64,000 bases of DNA from Candidatus Kapaibacterium sp. (GCA_018883125.1 VEQR01000002.1:20023-84022), one strand, 5' to 3'. Positions 22,405 to 47,800 are shown, counted from the first letter of the stretch. The notes: a model not told the origin generated them from the sequence alone. Numbers and translations: made by a program.

Positions 22405-25400
22405 TTAGCGTGCTATGACAACCTTTGCACGCGCGGTGAGTGCACCATCGGCGAACTCGACAGTGTACATGCCCGGAGCCAGCATGTCCGTCTTCAGACG
22501 CACATCGAACGACTGGCCAGATGTGGCGACGGACTGCGTGGCAACCTTGCTGCCGCTCATATCGAAGATCGTCAAGCGCGCGGTGGCACTTGGCGCGTGC
22601 TCCAGATTCAAACGGACGGAAACGTCAGCGTCTGCGGGAATCGGACCGAGTACACGCAGGAGTGATGAGGCCGTCTCGTCATCATCAACGGACGTGCCAT
22701 CCATGACAACAACCGTTGCAGCCGTTGTGGTGACCGTGCCGCAACCACCCGTTACGGCGCACGTGTATTGTCCTTCATCCGCCTTTGCCGCAGCGGCAAC
22801 GGTAAAGTCAGCTGCCGTAGCGCCGGAGATATCAACTCCACCCTTGCTCCACTGGTATGCTAGCGTAGAACCAGTGGCACTTACAGACAACGTAAAGGAC
22901 TTGCCTTGATCCACCGTCAGTCCTGCAGGCTGCTTGGTTATCTCAGTCGGTGTTCCAGCCAGAACGTTGACCGTTGTGGACGTAACACTTGGATTACAGG
23001 TTCCCGTTACTAGACAGTCGTACTTGCCGAGCGTTGAAGCATCCACCGATGCGATCGTGTAGGTGGACTCTGTAGCACCGCTGATGTTCACGCCGGCCTT
23101 GCGCCACTGGTACTTGAGTCCGGCACCGCTTGCCGTGATCGACAGCGTTGCAGGCTTTCCACCGCAGGCGGAAACATCAACAGGCTGCTTTGTGATCGCA
23201 GGAGTGCTTGAGATCGTGAATGGGGTGATAAGCTCGCTGAGGTGACCATGAATCGTCGTGATGCGGGCCAGATACAATCCTGGGGCTAGGTTCGGCACCT
23301 TCCACAGATAGCTCCGTCCACCAACATTCTTCGCAACATCCGTCCAAACATTTGAACCAGCAGCGGAGTACTGGATCTGGAACTTGGCTGTGTCCGGGAA
23401 GCCCTGTGCAGACCACGAGATCGGACGACTTGAGCCGATGCAGTACACTTCACCACCGGCAGGAGCCGTAAGCTCGATAACACCAAATGCGTGCTTGGCA
23501 ACGTAACCGTGAAGTCCAGCCGATGCCTTTGATGCGGACTTTGGATAGGTGGTCAGGTTCGTGGACGTGGTACTTGCAATGTAGTACGGGTTGCCAAGTG
23601 GATCCACAGAAAGGGCCTTGACGGTGTCTTTTCCATTCCCCGACACATACGTAGCATAGATATTCGTTGCGAGGTTGATTGACGCAATGAAACCATCGGT
23701 CTGCCCGGAACGGGTTGAAACAATGCCGCTACCCGTTAACGGGAAATTCTCTGAGTTGGTAGTTCCGCCCAAAAGGACCGTAGATCCTGAAGCGATCCGC
23801 AATGCATAGGCGGCGTCATCGCCCGAACCGCCGTAGTATGTAGTACCGACCAATTCGCGTCCATCATCAGCAAAGACCGACAGGTACGCATCACGCTTAC
23901 CAAAGGTCGTTGTATTGAGAGTACCAATCGCCGGAAGATTCGTCGATGTGGTCCATCCGGTGATGTACGCGCGTCCGAGATCGTCCACCGCGATCGCCGT
24001 TGCTTCCTCGTCGTTATTGCCGCCGAAGTAGGTCGAATAGGTACCGTCATCAGTGGTGGCAAGTGTTAGATCGCGACTGAATTTTGAGACGAAACAGTCA
24101 GTGATACCACCGTTGTATGAGTCATCGGCAGGCTTACGACCCGAAGCGAATCGGTCAGCGGTCGGGGCAATCTCAAAGTTCGACGACATCGTCGATCCAG
24201 TCACGAACACGCTGTTGGACTTGTCGATGGTCATGGCCGTGATGACGTCATTGTTCGAGCCACCGAAGAAGCGCGACAGCTGCATTGAACCATTGGCCGA
24301 GAATGTTGCAACGAAACAGTCGATCTGTCCCTGATTTGCTCCGCCGCCCGGAACGACACGCGTTGAAGGGGGCCGACCCCAGCTACCGGGAATGTTGATG
24401 GTGATCGTAGCCGGGAATGTTACCGGGAAGTTTGTCGTCGACGACGTGCTACCGGCAATGAAAATCACACCCTCTTGGTCTACGGCAATGGCACGGGCGA
24501 TATCGTCCTTGTTGCCGCCATGATAGAATCCAACGATCAGCTTCTTCAGCGTCGAATCAAGCTTTGCTACGAAAGCATCCGAGAGGGCTTTGTAGATCTT
24601 ACCTGTAACGCCGGAGGTCGTTGGGAAATCGTTGGAGATCGTTTCACCCGCAACGTACACGTTGTTCGACTTATCGCGTGTCAATGCACGAATGCGATCA
24701 TCCGAACCACCGCCGATAAACGTATAGGAGAGAACATTTTCAAGACGCGAATCCATCCGAACGAGGAATCCGTCCAGCTTACCCTTGACTGCCGTGCTAT
24801 ACCCGCCCGGCGCTGCTGGAACGTCGAGCTCGGATGTGTTACCAGCGACAATCACATCTCCATTACTCAGATATTCCAGATCAACGAGTTCATCATCGCC
24901 ATTGCCGCCGATGAATGAACCGTACACGGTGGACGTTACCGGTGAAACGTCGGCCAACTCCTGCTTGCCCCCGCCGCCGAGGATCTCACAGCGGATTGCT
25001 GATAGGTCAGCCCCCTGACGGGCAACAACGTTGCGGACAACGCGTCCGTCCTCAACAAGCGAGTACGTGAACGTCACCCCAGGATAGTAGTCCACAAGCG
25101 AAACGCGAGAGACAACAGGAGCTGAAAACCATTGTGTTTGGTCACTCCCCTTGATGAAGGACACAGTAGAGATGGCCTCGCTGGTGCGCTGCTCGAACCG
25201 TGGATTGACGTCGCGGAAGGCCTCCTGGGTGACGGTTCCGGTGCGCATGCGGTCGGCTGAAACCTCGAACTTGTCGGTGACCACACCTGTTCGCGTAATC
25301 CAGACATTGGCGCCGTTTTGGCGCACAGCATACAGGACGTGCGAAGGCCACTGCCCGACGTTGGCAATAAAGCCCTTCAGGTTCGCCGTCCCTGCGTTGG

Positions 25401-25494
25401 TCTCAGCGGCAGAAGCAACGTTCGAGGCTATAATGAGAAGGGATACGAGCGTCAGGCCTAGTGTCCTGAGGGTCGTCGCGATGCTTTTGTCCAT
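22405..25494 (-). CDS. Secreted SBBP beta-propeller repeat protein with Ig-like domains and a T9SS C-terminal domain (paralog 1)
   Basis: The ATG at 25494 gives MDKSIATTLRTLGLTLVSLLIIASNVASAAE. The N-terminal module reads FIANVGQWPSHVLYAV. SBBP-like repeats recur (DAFVAKL..GG..DD..AIAVD..G.IFIAG.T.S..FP). Two Ig-like units of the YQW.K.G..ISGAT...YT......D.G.Y.C.VTG.CG type follow. The C-terminus GMYTVEFADGALTARAKVVIAR looks like a sorting domain. Confidence 0.75.
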   Translation of the reverse strand: MDKSIATTLRTLGLTLVSLLIIASNVASAAETNAGTANLKGFIANVGQWPSHVLYAVRQNGANVWITRTGVVTDKFEVSADRMRTGTVTQEAFRDVNPRFEQRTSEAISTVSFIKGSDQTQWFSAPVVSRVSLVDYYPGVTFTYSLVEDGRVVRNVVARQGADLSAIRCEILGGGGKQELADVSPVTSTVYGSFIGGNGDDELVDLEYLSNGDVIVAGNTSELDVPAAPGGYSTAVKGKLDGFLVRMDSRLENVLSYTFIGGGSDDRIRALTRDKSNNVYVAGETISNDFPTTSGVTGKIYKALSDAFVAKLDSTLKKLIVGFYHGGNKDDIARAIAVDQEGVIFIAGSTSSTTNFPVTFPATITINIPGSWGRPPSTRVVPGGGANQGQIDCFVATFSANGSMQLSRFFGGSNNDVITAMTIDKSNSVFVTGSTMSSNFEIAPTADRFASGRKPADDSYNGGITDCFVSKFSRDLTLATTDDGTYSTYFGGNNDEEATAIAVDDLGRAYITGWTTSTNLPAIGTLNTTTFGKRDAYLSVFADDGRELVGTTYYGGSGDDAAYALRIASGSTVLLGGTTNSENFPLTGSGIVSTRSGQTDGFIASINLATNIYATYVSGNGKDTVKALSVDPLGNPYYIASTTSTNLTTYPKSASKASAGLHGYVAKHAFGVIELTAPAGGEVYCIGSSRPISWSAQGFPDTAKFQIQYSAAGSNVWTDVAKNVGGRSYLWKVPNLAPGLYLARITTIHGHLSELITPFTISSTPAITKQPVDVSACGGKPATLSITASGAGLKYQWRKAGVNISGATESTYTIASVDASTLGKYDCLVTGTCNPSVTSTTVNVLAGTPTEITKQPAGLTVDQGKSFTLSVSATGSTLAYQWSKGGVDISGATAADFTVAAAAKADEGQYTCAVTGGCGTVTTTAATVVVMDGTSVDDDETASSLLRVLGPIPADADVSVRLNLEHAPSATARLTIFDMSGSKVATQSVATSGQSFDVRLKTDMLAPGMYTVEFADGALTARAKVVIAR

Positions 25495-25572
25495 GTTAGG
25501 AAGGCTAATGGGAGTGAAAATGGAGTTCAACATTAAACAATAACACCCAAACCGTATTACGGTTACAAGACA

Positions 25573-25616
25573 CAGAAAAGAAAAGAGGCGTTCGCCGGAA
25601 AATCGGCGGACGCCTC
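25573..25616 (-). terminator. Rho-independent terminator after SBBP paralog 2
   Basis: The minus strand reads gaggcgtccgccg-attttc-cggcgaacgcctc followed by ttttcttttctgtg. It lies 33 nt downstream of the stop at 25649. Confidence 0.65.
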
Positions 25617-25648
25617 AACATCAAGTGCTGGTCGATTATCTCTGTTCT

Positions 25649-28600
25649 TTACCGAACCACCGTCAGCGGCAGTGTCCACGTTCCAGCAGTCGAGATGATC
25701 TTCAGAACATGCAACCCAGATTGACAGTTCTTTGTGGAGATCGCCACATCGTGCGTTCCCGCAGTGAGACCGCCGGTAGCAAGAGTCTCAACAACCCGGC
25801 CCCGCAGGTCCATCACGGCAACCGAAAGGTCCGTGGCCATGGAAAGTTCGATTCGCACGACGGCTTCGTCTGCAACGGGATGGCGTCCGACCACACGCGC
25901 AGACGAGAAGATGTCTGAATCCTCGTCCACCGACGTGCCTTCAACAACGATGGCTGCCTTGTCTGATGTTACGGCACCACACCCACCCGTTACCGTACAC
26001 GTATAGTCTCCGGCATCAGCAGGTTCGGCAGCGGATACAGTATAATCGGCCGATGTTGCACCAGAAATCGGCGCAGAGTTGCGTGACCACTGATAGCTGA
26101 GCGTTGAGCCCGTAGCTGCGACCGAAAGCGTGAAGGGACTACCGCTCTGCACAGTCAGGCCCGCAGGCTGTCTGGTGATAGCTGTAGCCGCAGCGGTTGT
26201 CAGATTCACACTCGCCGAGGTGATCGACGGATTACACGTGCCGGTAACCACGCAGTCGTATCTGCCGAGCGTGCCGGCATCGACCGTGACAACAATCGAA
26301 TCTGCTGTAGCCCCTGATATGTTCTGCCCACCACGACGCCACTGGTACTTCAATCCCGCACCGTCGGCCTTGAGACGCATCACGGCCTGGCCACCCGGAC
26401 ACGCACTGGCATCCTTCGGCTGGGACGATATCGCAGGTGGGTTCGAGATGATAAAGGGGCTTATCAGGCGACTCATGTGACCACGAGAGGTCGTCAGGCG
26501 CAGATGATACTGCCCGGTTGGAACATTAGGAACCTTCCAAGAGAAACTGCGTCCCTGAGCAACGCGAGTCACGACGGTCCAATTGGTCGTACCTGTCGGG
26601 GCAAGTTCGATAGAATACTTGGTGGTGTCCGGCATTCCCTGAGCTCCCCAGGATACTGCCTTATTCGAGCCTGCACACCAGGTTTCGCCAGCCAGCGGAG
26701 CAGTGAGTTCAATGGTTCCATAGGCGTACTTACCCACAAACACGTTTTGTCCGGAAGATTTACCTTGAGCGGCAGAATCCGGAGTTCGAAAGTTGTCCGA
26801 AGTGGTCGACATCGCATAGTACAGGTCTCCGGCAGGCTCTGTGGCCAGCCCCATGATCGAGTCGGCATCGGCACCGGAAATCAGTGTGGTATAGACGTTC
26901 GTGCTTGTGTTCAATAGCGCAACAAAGCCATCTGTGGTGCCGGCACGCTCATTGGTCGCCCCTTCGCCTGCAGCAGGAAAATCATTGGACTGAGTTGCGC
27001 CGTACATCACCGCCAGCTTGTTCTGCGTGTTGTACCGCACACCGTAGGCCTCGTCGTTACCCGTACCTCCAAAGTATGTGGCGCCAGCAAGCTTCTGGCC
27101 GTCGTCGCTGAACACGGCCAGAAAGAGGTCCTGACCACCGATGCGCTGCGTTATCAGCGTACCCACACAGTCGAGGTTGGTGGACGTCGTTACCCCTACA
27201 ACCTGAGCACGGCCTTGTTCATCGACAAAAATCCCGCGCCCTGTCTCATCACCGCTTCCTCCGAAATAGGTCGAGTACGTGCCGTCATCGGATTTTGCCA
27301 GGGCGAGCTCGTTGTTGAGCTTGACGACAAAGGCATCGGTGTTTCCACCATTGAAAACACGGTCATACGGCAAACGTCCTGAAGCAAAGAAGCCTGATGT
27401 AGGAGCCGTTTCGAAATTGGGCGACGTGGTCGAACCGGTAAAGTACACGCTGTTTGATGCGTCGATGCACATCGCTGTGACAAGGTCAACACCCTCACGA
27501 CCAAAATACCGTGACTGTTGAAGCGTACCAGTAGCCGAGAAGAAAGCCAGAAAGATGTCCGTGAGTCCTTGGTTACCTCCCCCGCCCGGCTCGGTTGTTG
27601 TGCGGCCACGCCAGTCACGACGAGTGGCAGTCACCGGAAAGGTAACGGGCAGGTTCAACGTGGATGTGGTGTTGCCGGCAATGAAAATCACCCCGTTCTG
27701 ATCTGCAGCAATAGCTACTCCACGATCGTCCTTGTTGCCACCGTGATAACCGCTGACAATGAGCTTGTTGAGCGTACTGTCGAACTTGGCGATGTACGCA
27801 TCAATACCTGCCTTGTAGAGCTGACCCGATGCGCCCGAGGTGACCGGTAGATCCGGAGAATTCGTTTCACCCGTCACGTACACATTGTTCGATCGGTCTT
27901 TGATGATCGACGTGATCTTATCCTCGCCTGAACCGCCGTAGAACGAAAACGACAGAACCTTTTGAAGCTTCCGGTCCATGCGCGCAAGGAATCCGTCCAG
28001 AAGACCCTTCAATGAACGGGAGTATCCACCTGTTGCGCCGGAGTATTCCATTGACGTTGTGCTACCGGCAATGATCACATCACCATTTGACAAATACTCG
28101 AGTCCTGCAACAAGATCAGTTCCCGTACCACCAAGGTAGGAACCATAGACCACTGATGTCGCGGGCGTAACATTGGACCTCGTTGATGCATCGTCATCGA
28201 TCTCGACCATCAGTGCAGAACGCTCAGCACCTGGACGGAGAACAACGTCCTGTCGGAGTCCATCACCGCCGACACTGTAGCGCACGTCTGCTCCCGGGAC
28301 AACGTTGTGGACGACGGCGATGGAATAGACCGGAGCAGAGAACCACTCGGACTCGCCCCTGCCCCGGAAAAAGTTCACACGGCTTACCGCGCCCACCGAG
28401 CTCACACGGGCACGCGGATCGGCATTGACAAACGTCCGACGTTCGATGCGTCCATTGCGCATCTGGTTCGCGACGTCAACGCCGTACTTGTCAACTTCGA
28501 CGCCAAATCGCGTGATCCAAACGTCCACCCCCTGCTGTCGCGAAAGAAACAGCACATGCGCAGGCCATTGACCGACATTTGCTATCAAGCCGTCGACGCG

Positions 28601-28699
28601 CGGATTCGTGGAATTGACGGTGCCGGCCCGAACCGAACTGTGCGTGATGACTAAGACCATTGCTGCTGCAATGACCGAAAAAAGTGAGCGGAGACTCAT
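25649..28699 (-). CDS. Secreted SBBP beta-propeller repeat protein with Ig-like domains and a T9SS C-terminal domain (paralog 2)
   Basis: The ATG at 28699 gives MSLRSLFSVIAAAMVLVITHSSVRAGT. It is collinear with paralog 1 along its full length, with long near-identical blocks (YLSNGDVI.AG, LDGFL.RMD, RSNNVYV.GET, YHGGNKDD, GVIFIAG). It has the same Ig-like units and sorting tail. Confidence 0.75.
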   Translation of the reverse strand: MSLRSLFSVIAAAMVLVITHSSVRAGTVNSTNPRVDGLIANVGQWPAHVLFLSRQQGVDVWITRFGVEVDKYGVDVANQMRNGRIERRTFVNADPRARVSSVGAVSRVNFFRGRGESEWFSAPVYSIAVVHNVVPGADVRYSVGGDGLRQDVVLRPGAERSALMVEIDDDASTRSNVTPATSVVYGSYLGGTGTDLVAGLEYLSNGDVIIAGSTTSMEYSGATGGYSRSLKGLLDGFLARMDRKLQKVLSFSFYGGSGEDKITSIIKDRSNNVYVTGETNSPDLPVTSGASGQLYKAGIDAYIAKFDSTLNKLIVSGYHGGNKDDRGVAIAADQNGVIFIAGNTTSTLNLPVTFPVTATRRDWRGRTTTEPGGGGNQGLTDIFLAFFSATGTLQQSRYFGREGVDLVTAMCIDASNSVYFTGSTTSPNFETAPTSGFFASGRLPYDRVFNGGNTDAFVVKLNNELALAKSDDGTYSTYFGGSGDETGRGIFVDEQGRAQVVGVTTSTNLDCVGTLITQRIGGQDLFLAVFSDDGQKLAGATYFGGTGNDEAYGVRYNTQNKLAVMYGATQSNDFPAAGEGATNERAGTTDGFVALLNTSTNVYTTLISGADADSIMGLATEPAGDLYYAMSTTSDNFRTPDSAAQGKSSGQNVFVGKYAYGTIELTAPLAGETWCAGSNKAVSWGAQGMPDTTKYSIELAPTGTTNWTVVTRVAQGRSFSWKVPNVPTGQYHLRLTTSRGHMSRLISPFIISNPPAISSQPKDASACPGGQAVMRLKADGAGLKYQWRRGGQNISGATADSIVVTVDAGTLGRYDCVVTGTCNPSITSASVNLTTAAATAITRQPAGLTVQSGSPFTLSVAATGSTLSYQWSRNSAPISGATSADYTVSAAEPADAGDYTCTVTGGCGAVTSDKAAIVVEGTSVDEDSDIFSSARVVGRHPVADEAVVRIELSMATDLSVAVMDLRGRVVETLATGGLTAGTHDVAISTKNCQSGLHVLKIISTAGTWTLPLTVVR

Positions 28700-28848
28700 G
28701 GGAACATTCCTCTGTTCAATAGGCGATGGAAGCACTACTTTTGCGAACGCAAAATTAGCTTGCGCGCAATTCACAGGCTGGGAAACCGACGACATCGACG
28801 ACTCGTTCCAGGCCTTAATGTGACATTCACATTCCGAATATTTTCCCC

Positions 28849-33977: not shown

Positions 33978-34984
33978 GGCGAAGGGGTGCCGCTGTTGCA
34001 GCGGCCGTTGGATGTGTAATGATGATCATGCTGCTGGCAGTGCTCAACCAGCCTCTAGATAGGCGAATGTCGGTGATGATTCCGCGGTCGTCAGTGGGCG
34101 CTTCTGCGGTCATCGACAGCATTCGGTCGAATGCAGGAAAGCGTCATGCGTGGGTGACATCCACCCTGGTTTCTGTGGGCCTGAAGATCACATCGCGGAA
34201 GGTGCTGCCCGGCTGGTATCACCTCGCCCGTGATGCATCCGCCCTCGACATCGCCACGATGATCGTCTTTGGTAGGCGCGAGCCCCTTGTCAAGGTCACG
34301 ATCCCTGAAGGATTCACCATTGAGCGCATCGCCCGGCGCCTCACGGTTCGGGCTGGCATCGATTCAGCAGCTTTCCGTTTATGGTGTCAGTCCGACTCCG
34401 TATTGCGCCGCTTCGACGTGCACGCCCCCTCGATGGAGGGCTTTCTTATGCCCGACACCTACTTCATGATCCGTGGCGATGACGCGCGATATGTGGCTGA
34501 GCTAATGGCCGCACAGGCACAACGCGTCTGGTCGAGCTTATCGGGCGTCGACTCACTGGCCGACTGGAACACTCGTCTGAGGCTGGCTACGCTGGCATCG
34601 ATCGTGCAGCTGGAGGCCGCAGTCGATGATGAAATGCCCACCATCGCCGGCGTGTACACAAACCGTCTTCGGATCGGGATGTTGCTGCAGGCCGACCCCA
34701 CCGTGCAGTATCTGACGGGACGTGACCGAATCACCGCCAGCGAACTTCGCGATGCATCGAATCGCTATAACACCTACGTCTACAAGGGGCTCCCACCCGG
34801 ACCAATCGGCAACCCCGGACGTAGAGCACTCGAGGCGGCGTGCAGGCCAGAAATCCATGAGTGGATCTTCTTCGTTGCTCGCGGTGATACGTCGCGACGA
34901 CACCGCTTTGCCAGAACGCTCGAAGAGCACAATGCCAACGTCAGGCTGTACCGAACTGCTAGGCGCGAATCATCATTGAATTAG
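33974..34984 (+). CDS. mltG: Endolytic murein transglycosylase MltG (YceG family)
   Basis: 336 aa with an N-terminal TM segment. The motifs TIPEGFTIERIA, LASIVQLEA and YNTYVYKGLPPGPIGNPG are present. It shares an ATGA overlap with the ABC ATPase gene. Confidence 0.85.
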   Translation: MRRRGAAVAAAVGCVMMIMLLAVLNQPLDRRMSVMIPRSSVGASAVIDSIRSNAGKRHAWVTSTLVSVGLKITSRKVLPGWYHLARDASALDIATMIVFGRREPLVKVTIPEGFTIERIARRLTVRAGIDSAAFRLWCQSDSVLRRFDVHAPSMEGFLMPDTYFMIRGDDARYVAELMAAQAQRVWSSLSGVDSLADWNTRLRLATLASIVQLEAAVDDEMPTIAGVYTNRLRIGMLLQADPTVQYLTGRDRITASELRDASNRYNTYVYKGLPPGPIGNPGRRALEAACRPEIHEWIFFVARGDTSRRHRFARTLEEHNANVRLYRTARRESSLN

Positions 34985-36432
34985 TCGGAGCTGACGATTG
35001 CGCTTTCCTTGCCCCGTTCATCGGCGGCCTGAACGCGGAATGCAAAGGGCTTCGAAGCGTCGCGCCGTGTGATCTCAAACACTTCCACCCAGGCTACAAC
35101 CGGACGCGTATTGTCTGCCGGACGCAGGTAGCCGGATAGTTTCCGTGGCGCAGTTGCATTTCCATCGACAACACGCAGCTGAGGCCTGTTCTCGCCCCGT
35201 TCATTGGAGAAGAACTGCACCACCACCATGCGCTTGTTCGGGTCGGCATCGCGGCGGATCTCCCTGATAACCGGTCCCGGGAAGGGTCGCACGATAAGGG
35301 GCTGAGCACCGACCTCAGCGCTACCATTGACCGACCTCTCAAACAGCATTGTCTTGCCCGTATCGCGTGCTGCGAACCTCACCCGGATCAGGCCTTGGTC
35401 CACCGACACAATCTCCCTGCCACCGTCGCGGATCACCGCTCTCACATCCGAGCGATCTGCCGGGAGCTTCGGATCGATCGTGTACTCCACGCCGGGATAA
35501 ACCACATCCGGTACCGATGGCGTTGCGTAGTTCATTGCGCTGACCGTAAACCGCGTGGTCGCCACGCGTCCGTCAGACCGACGTGCCGAAACCTCAACGA
35601 ATGCGGTCCCAGTGCGTGGCGCACGCCCACGCACCACTAGCGTCCGCTGATCGATCGTCCGTGAGACGTCCTGCATCGTCTCTCCACCCAGCCGGACACT
35701 CGGCAGATCAAGCAGATCCCGCTGCGGATCAGCCCCACCGATGCTGATGCGGTTCGTCCATTCTGCGCTGGCAAACGACGATATGTTGTCACGGGCCGGC
35801 TCAAGCCAGAACTCTGCCGCTCCGGCAGACGGCACGGATGTCGGCGACGATTCCCGAAGGACCAGCGTGTCGCGACGTCCGGGCAGAAACACCAGCTGTG
35901 GGGGCTGCTGATCGTTCACCACCGTCATCAGAACGAACTGCGTACTTCCCACCGCTTGCATGGCATCGGTGGCAACGCCATTTACCGGCGTGCCACTGGC
36001 ATACACCGTAACACGGAAGGTCTTTGAGAGTGCGGCATCAGCCAAGGGGCTCCAGGAGAACACAAAGGCACTCCGAGACGGATCATGACGCAACGATGCA
36101 AATCGCCTCGTTGACGGAGACCGTTCGTCGATCGTGAGCGACTGTCCGGAGGCGACATCTTCGATCACGGCCCGGACAGTAACATTTGTGAGCTGAGGAG
36201 AGTAGTGAATGACGTTGGCGGAATCCAGGCGAAGCAGGCGCACAGCACCGGACGAGTCGCGCTTGACCTCACACGTCAACCGCACACGCTCCGGAAACAG
36301 TTCAATGCGAAGAGGAGTCTGCGACTGATCTGTAGTTGACGGTACCGATGCCCCGTCGGGCATCAGAAGAACCAATGCCAGAAGGTACAGAACGAAGTAG
36401 ATCTCAACTCTACGACGCTGACGCTGGTCCAT
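34981..36432 (-). CDS. Single-pass membrane protein with a GldM/PorM-like N-terminal TM segment and an all-beta periplasmic region
   Basis: The ATG at 36432 gives MDQRQRRRVEIYFVLYLLALVLLMP. This resembles the GldM N-terminal pattern R-x7-Y within ..MYLVF.AMLAL. The remaining ~450 aa look beta-rich and multi-domain, with no obvious helical D1-type domain. It overlaps the upstream GldL-like gene by 23 nt. Confidence 0.45.
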   Translation of the reverse strand: MDQRQRRRVEIYFVLYLLALVLLMPDGASVPSTTDQSQTPLRIELFPERVRLTCEVKRDSSGAVRLLRLDSANVIHYSPQLTNVTVRAVIEDVASGQSLTIDERSPSTRRFASLRHDPSRSAFVFSWSPLADAALSKTFRVTVYASGTPVNGVATDAMQAVGSTQFVLMTVVNDQQPPQLVFLPGRRDTLVLRESSPTSVPSAGAAEFWLEPARDNISSFASAEWTNRISIGGADPQRDLLDLPSVRLGGETMQDVSRTIDQRTLVVRGRAPRTGTAFVEVSARRSDGRVATTRFTVSAMNYATPSVPDVVYPGVEYTIDPKLPADRSDVRAVIRDGGREIVSVDQGLIRVRFAARDTGKTMLFERSVNGSAEVGAQPLIVRPFPGPVIREIRRDADPNKRMVVVQFFSNERGENRPQLRVVDGNATAPRKLSGYLRPADNTRPVVAWVEVFEITRRDASKPFAFRVQAADERGKESAIVSSD

Positions 36433-37222
36433 TCCGATCAACGATGTTGCGTGAGAGAATGCGCTCGAGCTCTTGACGCACAAGGCGCTCGACTTCTTGG
36501 CGTTCAACGGCCTGCAGACGTTCACTCAGCGCACTGACGCTCTCGGTGAATTCCGCCAGTGCCTTCGTGTTCATCTTCATGGATGCCATCAGCTCGGGAT
36601 TTGGTGCTACCGCCCCAACGGCAGCCTGAACACTCTCGCGAAGCTGCTGCGTCATGGTATCCTGCCGTTCGACGACTTCGTGCAGCGTTACCGAGATCGT
36701 CTCAAGTTGAACGGCCATTGCCGCATAGTCTCGACCGATCTCCCCGAGCTCACGAATAAGCTCCTGAGATGTTGAGCCCCCTTCACCATTCCCATGCATC
36801 TCATCCGATTCAGCCGGAGGCGTGAAAAACATGACCAGGAATAGAAGCAACAGAAGGAGGGCTTCGGTGACAATTGCCGCAACAAGAAGGCCCGGAGTGT
36901 CAATAACCCGCACGCGGTTCAGACCAACGGCCACCAAGAGGAAGGCCGCGCCCATGTACACAAACGCATTGATGGGTGCATAGTAAAAACGATTGACAAT
37001 CTCCTGCATCCATAGAGACGTGCCCGAAAGAAGTCCAAGAGGGTGCAGTACTGTGACGTCGCGATTGACGGTGCGGAAAAGATCGCTTTCGCGTGTGCAG
37101 ATGCGCCAGAGCAGAACAAGCGTCGGCAACGAGCCCATCTGCTTGTCGAATCGAAGCTCCTGATGCAGGTCTCGAAGCAGTGCCCTGCCCGCAGCGGTCG
37201 AAAGTGTTTCGAGCGTCGTCAT
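36410..37222 (-). CDS. GldL/PorL-like two-TM stator protein with an N-terminal extension and a helical C-terminal region
   Basis: TM1 is FVYMGAAFLLVAVGLNRV..DTPG (compare GldL/PorL Y.(M/W)GAA.VI.GALFK...PG). TM2 is AAIVTEALLLLLLF followed by the acidic FTPPAESDE (compare GL.TEA.IF..SAFEP.E.E). The C-terminal ~130 aa are rich in Glu/Gln/Leu/Ala and look helical. The start could be ATG 37222 or GTG 37276. Confidence 0.5.
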   Translation of the reverse strand: MTTLETLSTAAGRALLRDLHQELRFDKQMGSLPTLVLLWRICTRESDLFRTVNRDVTVLHPLGLLSGTSLWMQEIVNRFYYAPINAFVYMGAAFLLVAVGLNRVRVIDTPGLLVAAIVTEALLLLLLFLVMFFTPPAESDEMHGNGEGGSTSQELIRELGEIGRDYAAMAVQLETISVTLHEVVERQDTMTQQLRESVQAAVGAVAPNPELMASMKMNTKALAEFTESVSALSERLQAVERQEVERLVRQELERILSRNIVDRNGPASAS

Positions 37223-37339
37223 GAAATGGCTGGTGCTCTTGGTGAGTAAACGGAGGCCAATGATACGGAATAGCACCTTTTGTTACTTGTCGGTGCGCCG
37301 ATTCTGTCGTATTCTCGTTTTCTGACTCTGCATTCATTC

Positions 37340-40300
37340 ATGAGGACCGCGATGACTACGCTCCTTCGCCGTGCTGCCCCGCTAGCTGTGTTTATTCTTG
37401 TCGGTCTGATTCTGCCAGCCTTGGCAGGAACACCCCGAAACATGCCCTCCCCTGGCGGTCCGGTAGCCTTCGAACGCAACGTGGGCCAGGCGCGATACGA
37501 CAACGGTCAATCCGGACGGCACGTCGATGCCGTCTTGCGGCTTGGGTCGACGATGGCATACATCCACGCATCAGGTCTCGACATCATGCAACAGGCGGTG
37601 CACCGCCTCCCGTCGCGAAATCAATACGAGCAGGATGTCGAAGTCGACATCGTTCGGGCTGACATGCGCCTGATTGCCAGTAATCCCGACCCTCGGGTTG
37701 AGTTCCTTCAGCCCCAACCGGGAACGGTTCGCTACATCACAGCCCAGACCGGTGTTGAGGGTGTGGTGGCCCAACGGTACGGAACACTGGTGTATCACGA
37801 TGTGTGGCCGGGCGTTGACATGCGTCTGTATCTCACACACCTCGGCCTGAAGTACGATTTCCTTGTGCATCCGGGTGCCGATCCTTCGCAGATCGCCTTC
37901 AGATATGATGGGACCGAACAGCCATCACTCGATGAAGACGGCAATCTCCTCGTGAAGACAGCGCTCGGCTCTCTCGATGAACAAGCTCCGGTGGTGTTTA
38001 CCAGCGACGCGGCGGGACTCTCGCGCACACCCGTCGGATCCCGATACAGCGTCAGCGGCTCCTCGATCCGGTTCCGCATCGAGGACTACGACCGCTCCAA
38101 GATCCTTGTGATAGACCCGCAGCGCGTCTGGGCCACGTATTACGGTGGCAATGCCAGTTTTGAATCGGTCTATACTGCCGTTGATCCGTCCGGCAGCGTG
38201 ATCCTGGCAGGAACGACCCTAGCGACGAACATGCCGAGCATCGCGGGCGCTCTCCAGCGGCGATTGAAGGCCGGGATGGATGGGTACGTTGCGAAGTTCA
38301 ATGAGAATGGCGTTTTTCAGTGGCACACCTACTACGGCGGCTCACTTATCGACCGCCTGCATGATGTGACAACGGATGGCAAGGGAAACATCTGGACTTG
38401 CGGTCAGTCAGACTCCAAGGACCGTCCGGAGGTCTCAAACGGCCTGCTTGGCAGTTCACCATTGGGCGACCCCGATTCCGTTCAGGGAGCTGACGCTATT
38501 GTTCTGAAGCTCGCGCCGGACGGAAAGTGGTCCGACAGCTGGGAGGTCTGGGGACGCGAGAACGACATCGCAACAGGCATCGCGGTTTCCGCAACAAAGG
38601 TTGCGATCGTCGGCTACACCCGCTCGCCGCGCCTCGGTGGACTCTTCGGTGAGGCACCGTGGAGAAAGGACTCCTCGAACTTTGGCAGCAACTTTGACAT
38701 GTTCGTCAGCGTTGTCAAACTCAAAACGCCACCAAGCCCCACCCGCCCAGAACAGTGGGTCCACGATTACCTGATCTTCTATGGAGGGGCCGGAGACGAC
38801 CTCGGAGGAAAGATCGGTTTCGATAAGCAATCCAACGTCATCTTCTCTGGCTACGGCTATTCGGCCAACTTCCCTGTGACCGATGGCTCCACCTACAAGG
38901 GTATGGAGGATATCTACGTGGTGAAGTTTGGTCCCACAGCCAATAGGATCTGGGCATCGATGTTTGGATCCACAGTGGACGAGGATCTTGGCGACCTGGC
39001 GGTCGATAGCAAGGGTGATGTGGTGGTCGTCGGCACCACCTATGGTGCAGACCTGCCAACGTCAAGCCCAATCAAGGCCGCAAAGGCCGGTATAACAGAT
39101 GGCTTCATTCGCAAGTACACCTCTGCCGGCACTGTGGCATGGTCAACGTACTATGGCGGAGACTCTGCTGACGCGGTGCGCGGAGTGGCCATGGACCGCG
39201 CTGACAACATCTGGATCGCTGGCAGTACAGCTCGATCGCTCAACATTCCGGTTACGGCCGACGCCATCCAAGCGACACCGTATGTGACGTCAGTAAATGG
39301 TTCACTTGCGGGCACCGACGGATTCGTTGGCAAGTTGAATCCCGCTGGCAGCGCGGTGCTATATGGATCTTATCTCGGTGCCCCCCCGCAGGACACCTTG
39401 CCCAAGCCACCGGCACCCCCGCCCGCGCCACCACCGCCGTTGCCGCCACCAAACACCGATTTCGGAACTGATGAGCTGTTCGATGTTGCTACCGATAACA
39501 ATGCCTACGTCGTCTTCACAGGGCGGTCAACAACGTATCGCATGACGACAACGAACGGAGCTTTCCAGGACTCCTCCGGTTTGGCCAAGGATACCGTTCG
39601 CGCAAATGCCTACGTAACTCTCTTCAGCCAATGCAAAGACTCGATCATCACGATCATTCCGAATGGTCCGGCAACGCTCTGCGATGTAGAGACGCGTCAG
39701 CTTGTTGGCCCGAAGGGTTTTGCGCGTTACCGGTGGTCGAACGGCGACACGACGCAGACAACGATTGCTCGCGACTCCGGATCATACACATTGCTGTGCA
39801 CAACCACCGACGGTTGCCGCTATCGGGACACTATTTACATCGGACGAAATCCAAAGCCATCGGTATCCGCCGGACGCGACACGTCCGTGTGTATTCGCTC
39901 AAGTATTGCTTTGACTGCTACCCCAAGCGGTGGAACTGCCCCCTATCGATTCAAATGGAATCGTGTTGAAACAGGACAAGAGTTTATCGATGACGACACG
40001 CTCAAATCGCCGAACGTCAACCCTGGTACAACCTCGCGCTATGAGGTTACGGTAACGGATTCTGCGGGCTGTTCATCAAAGGACACGGTGCTCGTAACGG
40101 TGACAGATCCAAAGCCAACCATCGGGCCGGCAACGGTGGATTTCGGAACCATTGATGGCTGTGCTTCATCTGCGGAAGTGGATGTTGCCGTGTTCAATCC
40201 GCAGGCCTACGAAGTGCGCATCACGGGCTTTGTGCCGGACGATCCGCGTCTGAGCCTTCTAACGTCGGTCTCCCCTGGCATCGTCATTCCACCAGGCGCA

Positions 40301-42352
40301 AGCAAAACGATCAGGCTCCGGATCTCGGCAACGTCGGCCGGTCAGATCAATGGAACCTACAACATCACGGGAACTCCATGTTCGTGGACCGCACCGGGTA
40401 AGTACACGGCAAAGAAGGATCAGCTGACGGCATCGATTTCTCCGGGCGTGGTGTCATTCGGTGCGAGTGTGGTCTGCGACGCAGCAGAAAAGCTTGATAC
40501 AGCGGTGATCACCAATAGCGGCAAGGTAGATCTTATCGTGAAGCCCGCCGCTGCAACAGCCCCCTTTGCGCTCGTCTCTCCTACGGCTGAGGTAACACTC
40601 AAGCCAGGTGAGCGTCGCGACGTTATCTTCAGGTACACACCGACTGTTGGAGTTCATAGCTCCGATATTGTCTTTGGGTACGAATCCGGCCCATGCAAGG
40701 ACTCTCTCCGAGTCCGCCTGAATGCTATCACCAGCGAGGTAACAGCCGCTGTTACGCCAGCCACGATCAACGGTGGAACTCTCTCCGGTTGCGAGAACCA
40801 AAAGGACACATCGATCACGATCGACAACACGTCGAACGTTGCCATTTCGGTAACCCTACCCACAGATGCGGAGATCGTCTACTCGCCGGCAGGTCCGATC
40901 GACATCGCTGCAAAATCCTCTGTGCAGGTTGCCGTGTCTCTGCGTCCGGGAACAGCCGGACTCTTCAGCCGTACACATGACCTGACGATCGAACCGTGTA
41001 AGGCCAAGACAAGCGTATCCTACACGATACAAAAGAATGGCATCGCATTCACGACACCATCAACTGTTGATTTCGGCGAGTTCTCAGCCTGTGTGCCGGG
41101 AACATCGACGCAGCGTAGCGCTTCTCTGTCGTTCGATGGCTCGGGAACAGCAACGATAAAGTCTGTTGCGACTGGACCACGCATTACCACCTCATTGACG
41201 AACGGTCAAGCACTTACATCGGGTCAGGCAGCACCGTTCACAGTCACGTGGACCCCTGCTGCAGATGGTCCGCTGGTGGACAGCATTGTTGTGACATTTG
41301 ACCCGTGCGACGTTCGCCGAGTGATCCGTGTAAGCGGCACACGCACAAGCATTGCTCTTCGGTCAGACAATCCAACGGTCGCTCTTGGCGCAATCACGGG
41401 CACAGCTTCCGGCAAGGTGAAGTATACCAACACCGGAACCGACACCATCTTCGTTGGTGTCTCCTCCAAGAGTGTCGGAACAGCCGTTGACGCTGCCGTG
41501 CCGGGTCCGCTGGTAGGCGTACTGCCGGGTGCTGAAGTCTCGGTTGACTTTACGACCGCCTGTAGGGACCGAACGTCCATCAGTGACACGCTCGAGTGTA
41601 TCGTCCTACTCCCCTGCGCCGGCGTCACGGCTCAGTCGGTGATCACGGCATCCTGCGCCAAAACAACCGTTGTCAGCAGTACGATCTCTATCGACACTGT
41701 CAGTAAGAAGATCGGCGAACAGTTCGTTGTGCCGATCCGCATTCGTTCATCACAGGGACTCAATGCAGCCGGGGCCAGCTCATGGCGCGCAACGGTCAGC
41801 TACGATCCATCGGTGATCGTTGGCCGGGCGAACACCACCGACTGTTGGCTGCCGAACAACGTTGGGCCATGTTCTATCACCATTCAGGGTACACGTGGCA
41901 CCGATACGGTTGGAACGCTCTTCGCACTGAACTATACCGCAGTGCTTGGTTCCACTGACCGCTCGGCTTTAACGCTCACCGACTTCCAATGGATAGGTGT
42001 GCAAGGCGCAACGATCGAAAAGCGGAACGGCTTGGTGACCATCAGTGATATCTGTCGCGAGGGCGGTGATCGCTACCTCGTCGGCAAGGCCAATGGCTAC
42101 GGCGTGCGTGTGTACCCAACGCCGGCAACATCGGATGTCACTATCGATGTGAAGGGGCTTGGCACGGATCAGCTTCGCTGGACCCTGTGCAACATGCTGG
42201 GAGAAGTCATTGCTGATGGCATTGGCCGGGCTGATGCCTCCGGTTCTCTGCAGGTAAGCATCGACGTGAGCGCCTTCGGCGCAGGCACATATACGATCAC
42301 CACGGCCGCGCGTGGCGATGTTCAGTACCTACCATTTGTCATTCAACGATAA
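37340..42352 (+). CDS. Giant secreted protein (1670 aa): SBBP-like beta-propeller repeats, Pro-rich linker, PKD/Ig-like and choice-of-anchor-D-like domains, cohesin-like module, T9SS C-terminal domain
   Basis: The ATG at 37340 gives MRTAMTTLLRRAAPLAVFILVGLILPALAG. SBBP-like repeats are present (DGYVAKF..G...W.TYYGG). The linker reads PKPPAPPPAPPPPLPPP. Many units of about 100 aa start V.FG....C. The cohesin-like segment reads IGEQFVVPIRIRSS...ATVSYDPSV. The sorting tail reads VRVYPTPATSDV...GTYTITTAARGDVQYLPFVIQR. Confidence 0.75.
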   Translation: MRTAMTTLLRRAAPLAVFILVGLILPALAGTPRNMPSPGGPVAFERNVGQARYDNGQSGRHVDAVLRLGSTMAYIHASGLDIMQQAVHRLPSRNQYEQDVEVDIVRADMRLIASNPDPRVEFLQPQPGTVRYITAQTGVEGVVAQRYGTLVYHDVWPGVDMRLYLTHLGLKYDFLVHPGADPSQIAFRYDGTEQPSLDEDGNLLVKTALGSLDEQAPVVFTSDAAGLSRTPVGSRYSVSGSSIRFRIEDYDRSKILVIDPQRVWATYYGGNASFESVYTAVDPSGSVILAGTTLATNMPSIAGALQRRLKAGMDGYVAKFNENGVFQWHTYYGGSLIDRLHDVTTDGKGNIWTCGQSDSKDRPEVSNGLLGSSPLGDPDSVQGADAIVLKLAPDGKWSDSWEVWGRENDIATGIAVSATKVAIVGYTRSPRLGGLFGEAPWRKDSSNFGSNFDMFVSVVKLKTPPSPTRPEQWVHDYLIFYGGAGDDLGGKIGFDKQSNVIFSGYGYSANFPVTDGSTYKGMEDIYVVKFGPTANRIWASMFGSTVDEDLGDLAVDSKGDVVVVGTTYGADLPTSSPIKAAKAGITDGFIRKYTSAGTVAWSTYYGGDSADAVRGVAMDRADNIWIAGSTARSLNIPVTADAIQATPYVTSVNGSLAGTDGFVGKLNPAGSAVLYGSYLGAPPQDTLPKPPAPPPAPPPPLPPPNTDFGTDELFDVATDNNAYVVFTGRSTTYRMTTTNGAFQDSSGLAKDTVRANAYVTLFSQCKDSIITIIPNGPATLCDVETRQLVGPKGFARYRWSNGDTTQTTIARDSGSYTLLCTTTDGCRYRDTIYIGRNPKPSVSAGRDTSVCIRSSIALTATPSGGTAPYRFKWNRVETGQEFIDDDTLKSPNVNPGTTSRYEVTVTDSAGCSSKDTVLVTVTDPKPTIGPATVDFGTIDGCASSAEVDVAVFNPQAYEVRITGFVPDDPRLSLLTSVSPGIVIPPGASKTIRLRISATSAGQINGTYNITGTPCSWTAPGKYTAKKDQLTASISPGVVSFGASVVCDAAEKLDTAVITNSGKVDLIVKPAAATAPFALVSPTAEVTLKPGERRDVIFRYTPTVGVHSSDIVFGYESGPCKDSLRVRLNAITSEVTAAVTPATINGGTLSGCENQKDTSITIDNTSNVAISVTLPTDAEIVYSPAGPIDIAAKSSVQVAVSLRPGTAGLFSRTHDLTIEPCKAKTSVSYTIQKNGIAFTTPSTVDFGEFSACVPGTSTQRSASLSFDGSGTATIKSVATGPRITTSLTNGQALTSGQAAPFTVTWTPAADGPLVDSIVVTFDPCDVRRVIRVSGTRTSIALRSDNPTVALGAITGTASGKVKYTNTGTDTIFVGVSSKSVGTAVDAAVPGPLVGVLPGAEVSVDFTTACRDRTSISDTLECIVLLPCAGVTAQSVITASCAKTTVVSSTISIDTVSKKIGEQFVVPIRIRSSQGLNAAGASSWRATVSYDPSVIVGRANTTDCWLPNNVGPCSITIQGTRGTDTVGTLFALNYTAVLGSTDRSALTLTDFQWIGVQGATIEKRNGLVTISDICREGGDRYLVGKANGYGVRVYPTPATSDVTIDVKGLGTDQLRWTLCNMLGEVIADGIGRADASGSLQVSIDVSAFGAGTYTITTAARGDVQYLPFVIQR

Positions 42353-42370: not shown

Positions 42371-43195
42371 ATGACACACCGTCTGCTTGCTGTTCTTGCT
42401 GTGCTCTCCCTCGGTACAGGCTCTGCTCTGGCCCAGGAATCTCTCTCCAAAGAACGTCCAAAACCTGCCCCGAAAAAGGCTCCGGTCCTGATCTCAAAGC
42501 GCGTCATGTCCGTAGGAGCTCATGCCTCCTATGGTATCATGATGAACGGCGTTTCGGCCTTCAAGCTGCCGTCCGTGCCATCGTGCTGTCCGGGCTATGA
42601 ATCAACATCCGGATCGGGGATGGTCTTCGGAGCCGAGATCGCGATCCCTATGTCGGAGACCATTGACATTGGCGGACGCTTGGTTTACCAATCAAGCTCC
42701 ACGGACTTCACCGCTGCAGAGCCCATCACCGTCCGGGCCGGAAATGGCGTTCTGGTGTCTGCCATCAATCACTCGTTCAAGACAACTACGAGCTTTCTCA
42801 TGATCGAGCCGGTGGCCAGCTTCAAACTTGGAGGCGGACTCTCAATGATGGCAGGACTGCGCGTTGGAACAACGCTTGGTGGCACGTACGATCAGCAGGA
42901 GTCGCTGGCCGATCCTTCGATCCCCTATGACTTCTCGTCCGGATCGGGACTCAACAACGTGAAGGCCGGTGATATTCCCAACACCAGCGGACTGCAGGCC
43001 GGTGTGCTGCTTGGAGTGCGCTATGGCGTAGCGCTGTCGGGCGGACTCTCCCTGATGCCGGAGGTCACCTACTCGCCGATGTTCACCGATGTTGTCACCG
43101 ATGCCTCGTGGACCATCTCGCCCCTTCGCATCGGCGTCGGCATTCTGTTCGACATCATGAGCACAGAAACAGCGTCAACCCCGATACAGCCGTAA
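42371..43195 (+). CDS. Small outer-membrane beta-barrel protein, CC-x-YE motif family (paralog of 6720..7478)
   Basis: 274 aa. Signal peptide MTHRLLAVLAVLSLGTGSALAQE. The motifs PSCCPGYESTSGSG and the C-terminal WTISPLRIGVGILFDI are present. It starts 18 nt after the giant cargo gene stop, with a GAGG Shine-Dalgarno-like element. Confidence 0.6.
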   Translation: MTHRLLAVLAVLSLGTGSALAQESLSKERPKPAPKKAPVLISKRVMSVGAHASYGIMMNGVSAFKLPSVPSCCPGYESTSGSGMVFGAEIAIPMSETIDIGGRLVYQSSSTDFTAAEPITVRAGNGVLVSAINHSFKTTTSFLMIEPVASFKLGGGLSMMAGLRVGTTLGGTYDQQESLADPSIPYDFSSGSGLNNVKAGDIPNTSGLQAGVLLGVRYGVALSGGLSLMPEVTYSPMFTDVVTDASWTISPLRIGVGILFDIMSTETASTPIQP

Positions 43196-44828: not shown

Positions 44829-47800
44829 ATGACGATAGCTCTTCGACGAATAACTGTCAGCATGCTTCTGCTGTGCACGATCTGTGCAGCACAGAGTCTT
44901 GCGCAGACATCGATCGGTGGCATCGTCAACGACTATACTCGTGTACTGCTTGCGGAGACCGTCAACTGTCGCTCTCGACTCCTTGTTGATTCAGTGGCCT
45001 CGTTTTCCGTAGGGGACCTCGTCCTTGTCATGCAGATGCAGGGGTGCACCGGAGCAACGGGTTATGACGTTTCAGCCGTTGGCCGCTGTGAGTTCGCAAC
45101 GATCGACACGATCGTGGGTACCGAGTTCCGATTGGAGTTTCCCCTTGAGAACACCTATTCCAACTGCGGCATGATCCAGCTGGTTCGGGTTCCCGTCTAC
45201 CGCTCTGCCAGCGTCACCACGCCCCTTACCGGACGTCCTTGGGATGGACGTGTTGGCGGCATCGTCGTGATTGACGTTCGCGGAACTCTGGCGCTTCGTG
45301 CCGACGTGAGAGCCGACACACTTGGTTTTCGTGGTGGTGCCATTTGGCAAGGGGGCGGAACATGCTCCACGATGGTAGATGACGATGTGATCAACAGTGC
45401 AAATTCCGCAGCCAAAGGCGAGACATTTGTACGCCCACTGCCAACGATGGTCGCTGGAGGCCGCGCGCTCTTCAGTGGTGGCGGTGGCGGACGTGGGCAC
45501 AACTCCGGTGGCGGTGGCGGCGGCAATGGCGGCGTGGGTGGACGGGGCGGAAGTCAGTGGGAAGGATGCGGCTCCTTCTTTGATAACGGCGGACGTCCGG
45601 GCGATCGCTACCCACCGGTCCTGAATGGGAAGCCCCTTCCTCGCTTCGGTAGTGGCGGCGGTGCCGGTCAGATGAACAACGGCAACGGTACGGGTGGTGG
45701 ACGCGGCGGCGGTATTGTGATCATCAGGTGCGATACACTCATTGGCAATCAGCGAGTTGTTTCTGCCAATGGTGGCTCTCCGTTACGCGTTGGGCTAAAC
45801 GACGGCGCCGGTGGTGGCGGTGCCGGTGGAACGGTCTTGATCGTGTCACCTGTGGTAACGGGTCCAGTTGCGGTACTCGCACTCGGAGGTGCTGGCGGAG
45901 ATCTCAACACCGGCGGGCTGCATGGTCCCGGCGGCGGTGGTGGTGGTGGGTGTTTCATCACATCCGAACAGCTTTCTCCGAATAATCTCACGTACACGCT
46001 CGCAGGCGGTACTAACGGAAGGAATCAAGCGTTCACCGACGTTCGGAACTCGGTGTACCTGGCAGAAGGTGGTCAGCCCGGAGGCGTGGGATTCCGTGCT
46101 CCCGTGCCGGAGAACCGCACACCACCGCCGCCGATAGAGGTTACGGCGGTTGCGAGCTATACGGTGTGTTATGGTGATTCCATCGTCCTTGACTGCAGTG
46201 TAATCGGACGGGCCGACACCATTCTTTGGACAACAACTCGTGGCAAGCTCATCGGACGCACCAAGCGATCAGGACTGCGCGGCATTGTTTCCGACACTTT
46301 CGTCGTCAAGGCCATCGGACCCACGGGATGTTGGGCGCTAGATACGGTCGTGGTGACGGTTCGTGATCCGTGGAACGTCCGCCTTGACACTCTCGATTTG
46401 GGTGTTTTGCGGTGTAGCGCACCGATAGACACGTTCATTACCCTGCGCAATCGAACAACACGCACAGCACCGATCAGCCGTTGGATGGTGAGCGACAGTG
46501 CGTTTATTCAACTGCTCACTAGCACCGACTCGGTCAGCGCTCGAGATAGCTTCCAGGTGAGACTCCTTGTTTCGCCCGGTGACCGCCAAGGTCGGCAGGT
46601 GAGTACGATCACGGCAGTGGTGAGTCCATGCGACTCCGCCATCATCGCCGTAGTCTCATGGACACGTCAGGACCGACAGATCGATATGCGTCCTGATACG
46701 GTCATCATGCCGATGATCGAGACGTGCACCACAACTTCTGAGGAAGTCACGATCGCCGTTCGATTTACTGGAGCGGACGTTGTCGTGGAAGACCTCCTGA
46801 CGGATAGCGTAGCTTCTGCGTCGATCGCGCTACCTCGGCCTCTCGCTAGTGGTGATACGATGATGGTGCGCGTGGTATGGTCACCATCACGAGTGGCCGC
46901 AACCGGACGTCTGGGCTTCGTCATCCGTGACAGTGCCTGTCTCGATACATTCTGGATGACGGTGACCGGAAAGGTGAAAGCTCCATTCCTCATTGCTCCA
47001 ACAACCGTCCAAGCAGATACTCTTACGTTGTGTGAGGATTCCGTTCTTACGGTTCGCGTTCCGTTGATCGCTGATACCACAACCGCATGGATCGTCGACT
47101 CGATAGACGTTGTCGGCCCGGGCTCTGCTTCGATTGTACGGGGCGACTCAATTCGTGGCCTCGATACGATCATCGTCAAGGCGCGCCCTGGCGTTAGTGG
47201 CCCCTACCAAATCGCCCTTCGAATGAGGTTACTGCCATGCGACACGGTCGTAACGATCCTTATCAATGGCGTCGCACGTGATGCGTCGATCAGATCATCT
47301 CCGTCACTGACCTTTACCGAGCGTATCATTGGAAGAAGACAAGTCCTCGTTGCGTCATACGTGAACACTGGCACAACGCCGTGTGCACTTCGCGTGGTGC
47401 AGACGCCGCGGGCACCGTTCCGCATTCTGCGCATTACACCCGTACTACCAATGGAGATCGGCATTGGCGACTCCGTGACGATTGAGGTTGAGTATCGACA
47501 GTCGTTTGGGGAGTTTACCGACAGCGTGGTCCTTGAGCGCGTTGCTCCGTGTCCGACGCTGCTGACGACGCTTCTCAATGGTGAAGGCAAGGCCATAACG
47601 CGCCTGCGCATTCCTGACGTCACCGCAAAGACGGGTCAAGTTGTGGACGTTCCTGTGTTGATGGTCGGACGCCCGGACATCGACGCTGCACTGCTCGACA
47701 CCTTCTCGGTCCGCTATGCCTGGAAAACCAGTGAGGCCAGCGTTGAGCCTGGCTCTGATGCTCGATCGAGCTGGACACTTCTGCCGCGTGGAGATTCCAC

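Follow-up and report, generated by a model that had tools for sequence, protein, structure and literature searches.

A pair of adjacent genes in a 64,000-nucleotide stretch of DNA from Candidatus Kapaibacterium sp. (GCA_018883125.1, VEQR01000002.1:20023-84022; this whole stretch is termed the window, and positions are counted from its first letter) encodes two membrane proteins that are built like GldL and GldM but fail every standard family test, and that may thus represent a new variant of that motor. The reading with the best support is that of an inner-membrane energy transducer of GldLM type, in which the stalk is all-beta, a novel feature, and the axle helix bears an extra invariant acidic residue. 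It can be tentatively proposed, with a confidence just short of an even chance, that both proteins form one inner-membrane complex on the GldL/GldM plan, whose most likely role would be to energise the secretion system of type 9 (T9SS) in Kapabacteria. The pair is an uncharacterised module of GldLM-like architecture and possibly a remote homologue, and is not demonstrably part of the GldL or the GldM family; that it serves Kapabacteria as their T9SS motor is plausible. The two genes, here called L-like and M-like, and their parts are the following:

36410-37222, minus strand: L-like gene, 270 amino acids (aa) plus stop, ATG at 37222, a start backed by the orthologue alignment (A1) and by the NCBI annotation
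37043-37222, minus strand: cytoplasmic N-domain of the L-like protein (residues 1-60), a small alpha/beta domain in the AlphaFold2 (AF2) model, mean conservation 0.67, no GldL counterpart
36914-37042, minus strand: amphipathic helix preceding the first transmembrane (TM) helix, and TM1 itself (residues 61-103; AF2 helix 63-103), with invariant Tyr89, Gly91, Ala92 and Arg103, conservation 0.78-0.81
36824-36895, minus strand: TM2 (residues 110-133; AF2 helix 110-132), with invariant Glu120 (codon 36863-36865)
36434-36772, minus strand: cytoplasmic coiled-coil hairpin (residues 151-263; antiparallel AF2 helices 151-204 and 209-263), PDB matches of coiled-coil type only
36410-36432, minus strand: overlap of the L-like stop region with the M-like start, 23 nucleotides, translational coupling
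34981-36432, minus strand: M-like gene, 483 aa plus stop
36361-36417, minus strand: basic cluster and TM helix of the M-like protein (residues 6-24), with Arg6/Arg7, Glu10, Tyr12, Phe13 and Tyr16, conservation 0.82
34984-36309, minus strand: four all-beta periplasmic domains (residues 42-175, 206-302, 303-396 and 397-483), with a predicted local distance difference test score (pLDDT) of 83 in AF2 and Foldseek matches to tandem immunoglobulin (Ig)/cadherin-type arrays
37223-37339, no strand: intergenic region separating the L-like gene from a divergently oriented 1690-aa cargo gene, context only

The L-like open reading frame (ORF) is open to a GTG at 37276 (36410-37276, 288 aa); orthologues and the NCBI annotation of the metagenome-assembled genome (MAG) place the start at Met19 of this 288-aa ORF, and the identical MAG protein has the locus tag FGM32_00635 (Candidatus Kapabacteria). 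The M-like ORF spans 34981-36525, with a real start at the ATG at 36432 and a protein that begins MDQRQRRRVEIYF (locus tag FGM32_00630). The 23-nucleotide overlap of the two genes, both on the minus strand, had been described in an initial annotation made from the sequence alone and is borne out; the strings quoted there, namely FVYMGAAFLLVAVGL, TEALLLLLLF and FTPPAESDE, can all be found in the sequence, and the GldL and GldM motifs that it gave match exactly the solved sequences 6ys8_G and 6ys8_A. Considering that the L-like protein occurs in 184 species genomes and that in 70 of 72 loci the M-like gene directly follows the L-like gene in the same orientation, the pair is no chance assembly. 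The reading frames overlap or are separated by a short gap in most of 70 related loci.

Regarding the L-like protein, the structure model (as for the M-like protein, an AF2 monomer built with family alignments) has a pLDDT of 78 and can be divided into five parts, with a disordered acidic linker between TM2 and the tail and a periplasmic loop of only about 7 residues. The extension that the initial annotation noticed at the N-terminus is indeed present before TM1, although its length is about 80 aa in the model and not 100. Within the N-domain, residues 10-31 show a weak, non-significant likeness to Z-alpha winged-helix domains (E about 1). The best-conserved stretch of the protein is formed by the pre-TM helix and TM1. 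Tyr89, Gly91, Ala92, Arg103 and Glu120 are invariant (Tyr89 and Glu120 in 26 orthologues), so that the membrane-embedded Glu pointed out in the initial annotation holds throughout the orthologues, as do the TM Tyr residues; the Tyr of TM1 and the Glu of TM2 are at least 90% conserved in the wider family (n=84). The hallmark of GldL, a two-helix hairpin with a conserved Tyr in TM1 and an invariant Glu in TM2, is therefore present in the L-like protein.

The model of the M-like protein displays a TM helix (residues 8-22), a disordered linker and the four all-beta domains, without a helical first domain, in agreement with the earlier remark that the periplasmic part is beta-rich right after the TM helix and lacks a helical D1. 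Among 76 distinct N-termini, Tyr12, Phe13, Leu15 and Tyr16 show 100% conservation, Glu or Asp occupies position 10 in 100%, and positions 6 and 7 are basic in 96% and 92%, respectively. An Arg 8 residues ahead of the Tyr, as first proposed, is not supported: this position before Tyr16 is Arg in just 45% of these N-termini, and the conserved basic residues are located 9-10 residues before Tyr16. In both proteins the membrane segments score highest for conservation (0.78-0.82, vs 0.25-0.45 in linkers), which is unusual for mere membrane anchors.

The resemblance of the hairpin to GldL could be evaluated by hhalign, comparing a hairpin profile of the wider family (77 sequences) with a GldL_N profile (124 sequences). 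The alignment has a probability of 54.8% (P=1.2e-4, score 27.6) over 55 columns covering both helices, and pairs Tyr89 with Tyr13, GAA with GAA, the conserved Arg with Lys27, Glu120 with Glu49 and F.P with FEP. When columns were shuffled while preserving the composition and position of each segment (n=1400), the mean score was 13.6 (standard deviation 3.5) and 8 of 1400 shuffles reached the real score (empirical p about 0.006); the reversed profile scored 9.2. An earlier hhalign comparison with only four PDB sequences of GldL gave a probability of 1.8%, since the method needs broader profiles for both partners to be informative. In HMMER comparisons with the filters off, scores reached 14.9 bits for real GldL sequences, 6.1 for shuffled and 2.6 for reversed ones. 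Judged from these comparisons, the similarity of the hairpin to GldL seems a real but weak signal, and remote homology between the two stands at about even odds. According to the GldLM paper, GldL Glu49 and GldM Tyr17 are invariant, GldL Tyr13 and GldM Arg9 are highly conserved, and all four matter for the function of the motor in the membrane core. Each of these four core residues has a positional counterpart in the present pair, namely the invariant Glu120 and Tyr89 of the L-like protein, the invariant Tyr16 of the M-like protein and the basic cluster of the latter.

Several results weigh against the GldLM-type reading. Neither protein has a GldL or GldM match in Pfam and NCBIfam at E<=1, where PF22827 (GldL_N), TIGR03513, the GldM domains, MotA/ExbB and any other relevant family were all without a match, and no GldL family is among the 25 most-hit families when 84 relatives are compared with Pfam at E<=10. 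When HMMER profiles were compared with PDB sequences, neither the GldL nor the GldM membrane region came up: profiles of the full-length L-like protein, of its hairpin only and of the M-like protein returned coiled-coil noise only (GldL 7sax_C at E=0.079, by its tail only), and the M-like profile A2 found no GldM or PorM at E<=10. The 288-aa protein, which the initial annotation regarded as GldL/PorL-like, thus has no profile match to GldL/PorL at the HMMER level, and its membership of the GldL family is not demonstrated. While five PorL/GldL chains can be found among the 50 Foldseek matches listed for the L-like model (target-normalised TM-score 0.47-0.63), their E-values of 3-5 are all non-significant; for the M-like model, GldM and PorM are not among the top 50 Foldseek matches, which comprise generic Ig and cadherin arrays only. 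To align the hairpin with GldL_N, gaps of one residue in TM1 and of four residues in TM2 are needed, so that Glu120 may lie deeper in the membrane than Glu49, and the M-like helix aligns with the GldM helix at P=0.023 only. The named members, distant clusters included, all belong to Kapabacteria/Kapaibacteriales. Finally, a T9SS machinery gene never adjoins the pair among the recurring neighbours profiled in 80 loci; LptFG, BamD, MltG or unrelated genes are found there instead.

A HMMER scan of 1.84 billion representative proteins with a profile of the N-domain plus hairpin yielded 98 clusters (50% identity) at E<=0.001; GldL_N is absent from all 20 clusters checked, while true GldL fragments all carry PF22827. 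The hairpin is the module of a small family without Pfam, NCBIfam or PADLOC annotation.

Compared with GldL/PorL (PF22827; 6ys8, 7sat, 7sau, 7sax, 7saz), the L-like protein shares the hairpin with its TM1 Tyr, GAA motif, basic residue where TM1 meets the periplasm, and TM2 Glu, an acidic linker after the hairpin followed by a helical cytoplasmic region, and a gene located directly upstream of that of a bitopic partner. It differs by the 80-aa cytoplasmic N-domain and amphipathic helix added before the hairpin, by a TM2 about 4 residues longer after the Glu, by a tail that forms a long coiled-coil hairpin and by a gene that is never found in a gldKLMN operon in the 80 loci. The M-like protein and GldM/PorM (6ey4, 6ys8_A, 7cmg) share basic residues at the N-terminus, after which comes a single TM helix bearing an invariant Tyr, as well as a periplasmic part of four domains and a similar length (483 vs 513 aa). 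However, the M-like protein shows neither a sequence nor a fold match to them, and its periplasmic part is unrelated to GldM in fold order: its first periplasmic domain is a beta-sandwich in the AF2 model, in contrast to the up-and-down helical D1 of GldM, which consists of five helices (PMC5790014). In addition, its TM helix has an invariant Glu/Asp at the cytoplasmic end, which does not occur in the GldM helices retrieved, and a second invariant Tyr, and no GldK/GldN partner is encoded near its gene.

The 5:2 motors MotAB, ExbBD and TolQR resemble the pair as two-gene modules in which a ring subunit in multiple copies goes with a bitopic axle subunit, with an acidic residue near the cytoplasmic end of the bitopic helix that is invariant in the M-like protein; MotB Asp32, ExbD Asp25 and TolR Asp23 are such residues. 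Unlike them, the pair has no match to MotA_ExbB or OmpA-like/ExbD domains, and the candidate ring subunit has two helices instead of three to four and bears the buried Glu itself, as GldL does. Zorya ZorAB also associates a membrane subunit having a long coiled-coil cytoplasmic tail with a bitopic partner, but PADLOC gave no match of the pair locus to ZorA/ZorB and the locus is conserved in the manner of housekeeping genes across the 184 species genomes, unlike a variable defence island. A Zorya-like system was set aside on these two grounds, and a defence function is unlikely.

With regards to distribution, one genome per species was scanned, and the best 80 of the 184 genomes with an L-like gene were fetched as loci, in which neighbours were determined by our own ORF calling and clustering. 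The labels of these 80 MAGs are for the most part Kapaibacterium, Ignavibacteria, Bacteroidota or Chlorobiota. Several loci (L007, L011, L019, L031, L034, L039, L072 and others) are titled Patescibacteria, Chitinophaga pinensis, Hyphomicrobiales, Bradyrhizobiaceae or Chloroflexota yet have a Kapabacteria-type gene order, and these off-group labels are probably wrong. MltG/YceG lies convergent and downstream of the pair in more than 34 of the 80 loci, LptF/LptG directly upstream on the same strand in 17-20, and BamD/YfiO upstream in several. Since MltG is convergent and is swapped for other genes in other clades, it was ruled out as an obligatory partner. A giant DUF7948 cargo gene is the divergent neighbour in 29-33 of the 80 loci, all of the closest clade; the head-to-head arrangement with such a gene that the initial annotation emphasised is hence real in the window and in this clade but is not kept in others. 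An arrangement so restricted gives no functional clue, and the giant cargo gene was ruled out as a functional partner. No GldK (FGE-sulfatase) or GldN-type gene could be found among the window ORFs scanned or the recurring neighbours of the 80 related loci, as the initial annotation had already observed for the flanks of the pair.

In the preferred reading, that of a GldLM-type transducer, the L-like hairpins may surround, as a ring, two dimerised membrane helices of the M-like protein. A putative proton path would run through a core made of Glu120 and Tyr89 of the L-like protein and of Glu10, Tyr12/Tyr16 and the basic cluster of the M-like protein. Any resulting rotation or other movement would be relayed across the periplasm by the four beta-sandwich domains to an outer-membrane partner. 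Since Kapabacteria encode many T9SS cargo proteins, such a device would most likely serve there to power type 9 secretion in the absence of a GldK/GldN ring. The T9SS-motor role is attractive in view of the several cargo genes in the window and of the report that, of the T9SS proteins, Ignavibacterium and Melioribacter have only SprA, PorV and Plug (PMC11705866), these genera belonging to a neighbouring class and not to Kapabacteria. No paper on GldLM-like systems or T9SS components in Kapabacteria came up in the literature searches. A more specific version can be formulated, in which the pair would be the missing energy source of a T9SS working without GldK/L/M/N: a distinct branch of GldLM-type 5:2 proton motors, with an all-beta stalk, protonatable acidic residues on both ring (Glu120) and axle (Glu10) and a direct coupling to the SprA/PorV translocon or another outer-membrane partner, related pairs being found in other lineages as four-gene operons (L086). 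This version is possible but has to be regarded as doubtful.

Other explanations have to be weighed against the GldLM-type reading. The pair might be a static or signalling complex rather than a motor, the L-like protein being a membrane-anchored coiled coil with a chemoreceptor-like hairpin, the M-like protein a bitopic periplasmic Ig scaffold, and the likeness to GldLM a convergence arising from the small and aromatic residues common in packed membrane helices. Every standard profile search being negative is consistent with this, as are the best PDB matches of the L-like tail, which are coiled coils and chemoreceptor cytoplasmic domains, the name "methyl-accepting chemotaxis protein" given to family members in some JGI entries, and the existence of 4-TM relatives of the hairpin without an M-like partner. 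Nevertheless, invariant buried Glu and Tyr residues together with a conservation that peaks in the membrane segments would not be expected for anchors, the similarity between hairpin and GldL exceeds that of 99.4% of the composition- and segment-matched shuffles, and the short periplasmic loop leaves no sensor domain; such a non-motor complex seems somewhat unlikely. Alternatively, the pair could be an ion-driven or other trans-envelope module serving a process other than type 9 secretion, such as outer-membrane/lipopolysaccharide biogenesis, peptidoglycan remodelling or surface motility. That the recurrent neighbours are envelope housekeeping genes (LptF/LptG, BamD/YfiO, MltG/YceG), with T9SS machinery never among them, argues for it, and the distant L086 pair is followed by two secreted proteins of no known family. 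The envelope-biogenesis neighbours leave scope for another envelope function. However, these neighbours vary by clade and none is therefore obligatory, Pfam and NCBIfam reveal no resemblance to MotA/ExbB/TolQ or any Lpt, Bam or Tol component, and the residue pattern is nearest to that of GldLM; an envelope role of this kind can be considered unlikely.

An ordinary GldL/GldM motor merely parted from gldK and gldN would share the gene order, the similar sizes (270/483 aa vs 215/513 aa) and the similar key residues of the present pair. The negative profile searches, the beta instead of five-helix first periplasmic domain, the extra N-terminal domain of the L-like protein and the invariant acidic residue of the M-like helix all speak against it, and this explanation, refuted by sequence profiles and predicted fold, is extremely improbable. 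An alignment of the M-like protein to ordinary GldM fails; a full-length one would, according to the initial annotation, have made the pair the standard motor split from gldK/N, which it consequently is not.

Among the distant relatives, LptFG is followed in one locus (L085) by an L-like gene and this by an evident M-like homologue (hhalign 99%), and in another (L086) the L-type protein has its hairpin at the N-terminus, as in GldL. The latter locus displays four genes on the same strand (L086:6001-9997) encoding the L-type protein, an M-type protein (442 aa, starting MRQKTSFYFVLYIVAIVSLLD), a 444-aa secreted protein and a 150-aa secreted or lipoprotein-like protein; no member of the set has a Pfam or PADLOC match, and homologues of the third and fourth genes were not found in the fetched loci. 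Three further unannotated genes lie downstream at the locus of the relative P0236. P0255 (L004:8001-9203) and the similar P0249-P0275 are proteins of 230-440 aa in which the hairpin motif NNVQGFAYGGAALLIVIVGLRG...LEF..LL..TPEE comes after extra N-terminal membrane helices, and P0255 stands alone, with no M-like gene adjoining. T9SS cargo was not found beside the distant relatives using a home-made hidden Markov model of the C-terminal domain.

Regarding the cargo genes of the window, the 1690-aa neighbour harbors DUF7948, SBBP and Ig domains together with a Por_Secre_tail (27.6 bits, cutoff 27). The initial annotation counted seven T9SS cargo genes in the window; six ORFs with a T9SS C-terminal domain signal were found, four above the curated cutoff and two below. 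Within 20 kb, at 22405-28795 (minus strand) and 37280-42352 (plus strand), three large paralogues are encoded that are DUF7948/SBBP beta-propeller proteins ending in T9SS tails, and a similar DUF7948/SBBP protein can be found again at the edge of locus L001. At 42371-43195 (plus strand), a 274-aa protein without a Pfam match has a weak match to an outer-membrane beta-barrel (TDE1717 family, E=0.017); in 26-29 related loci an orthologue of it comes after the giant DUF7948 cargo gene, an organisation reminiscent of the SprF/PorP-type partners of large adhesins. At 44829-48278 (plus strand), a protein of 1149 aa that carries a T9SS C-terminal sorting domain has an N-terminal 400 aa resembling the NCBIfam AgmC N-domain (adventurous gliding motility protein; E=4.9e-52, 177 bits, below the 275-bit cutoff).

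To our knowledge, the known families of ion-driven membrane motors number very few, and GldLM has been described as specific to the T9SS and gliding of Bacteroidota. If the GldLM-type reading is true, a second divergent motor family built on the same plan would show which core features are essential (Tyr and Glu in the ring, a basic residue and Tyr in the axle) and also which parts are interchangeable, such as a helical or a beta stalk and the presence or absence of a GldKN ring. It makes testable how lineages with T9SS cargo and a translocon but no recognisable motor energise secretion, and about 100 protein clusters (50% identity), now all annotated as "hypothetical", would gain an annotation hypothesis.

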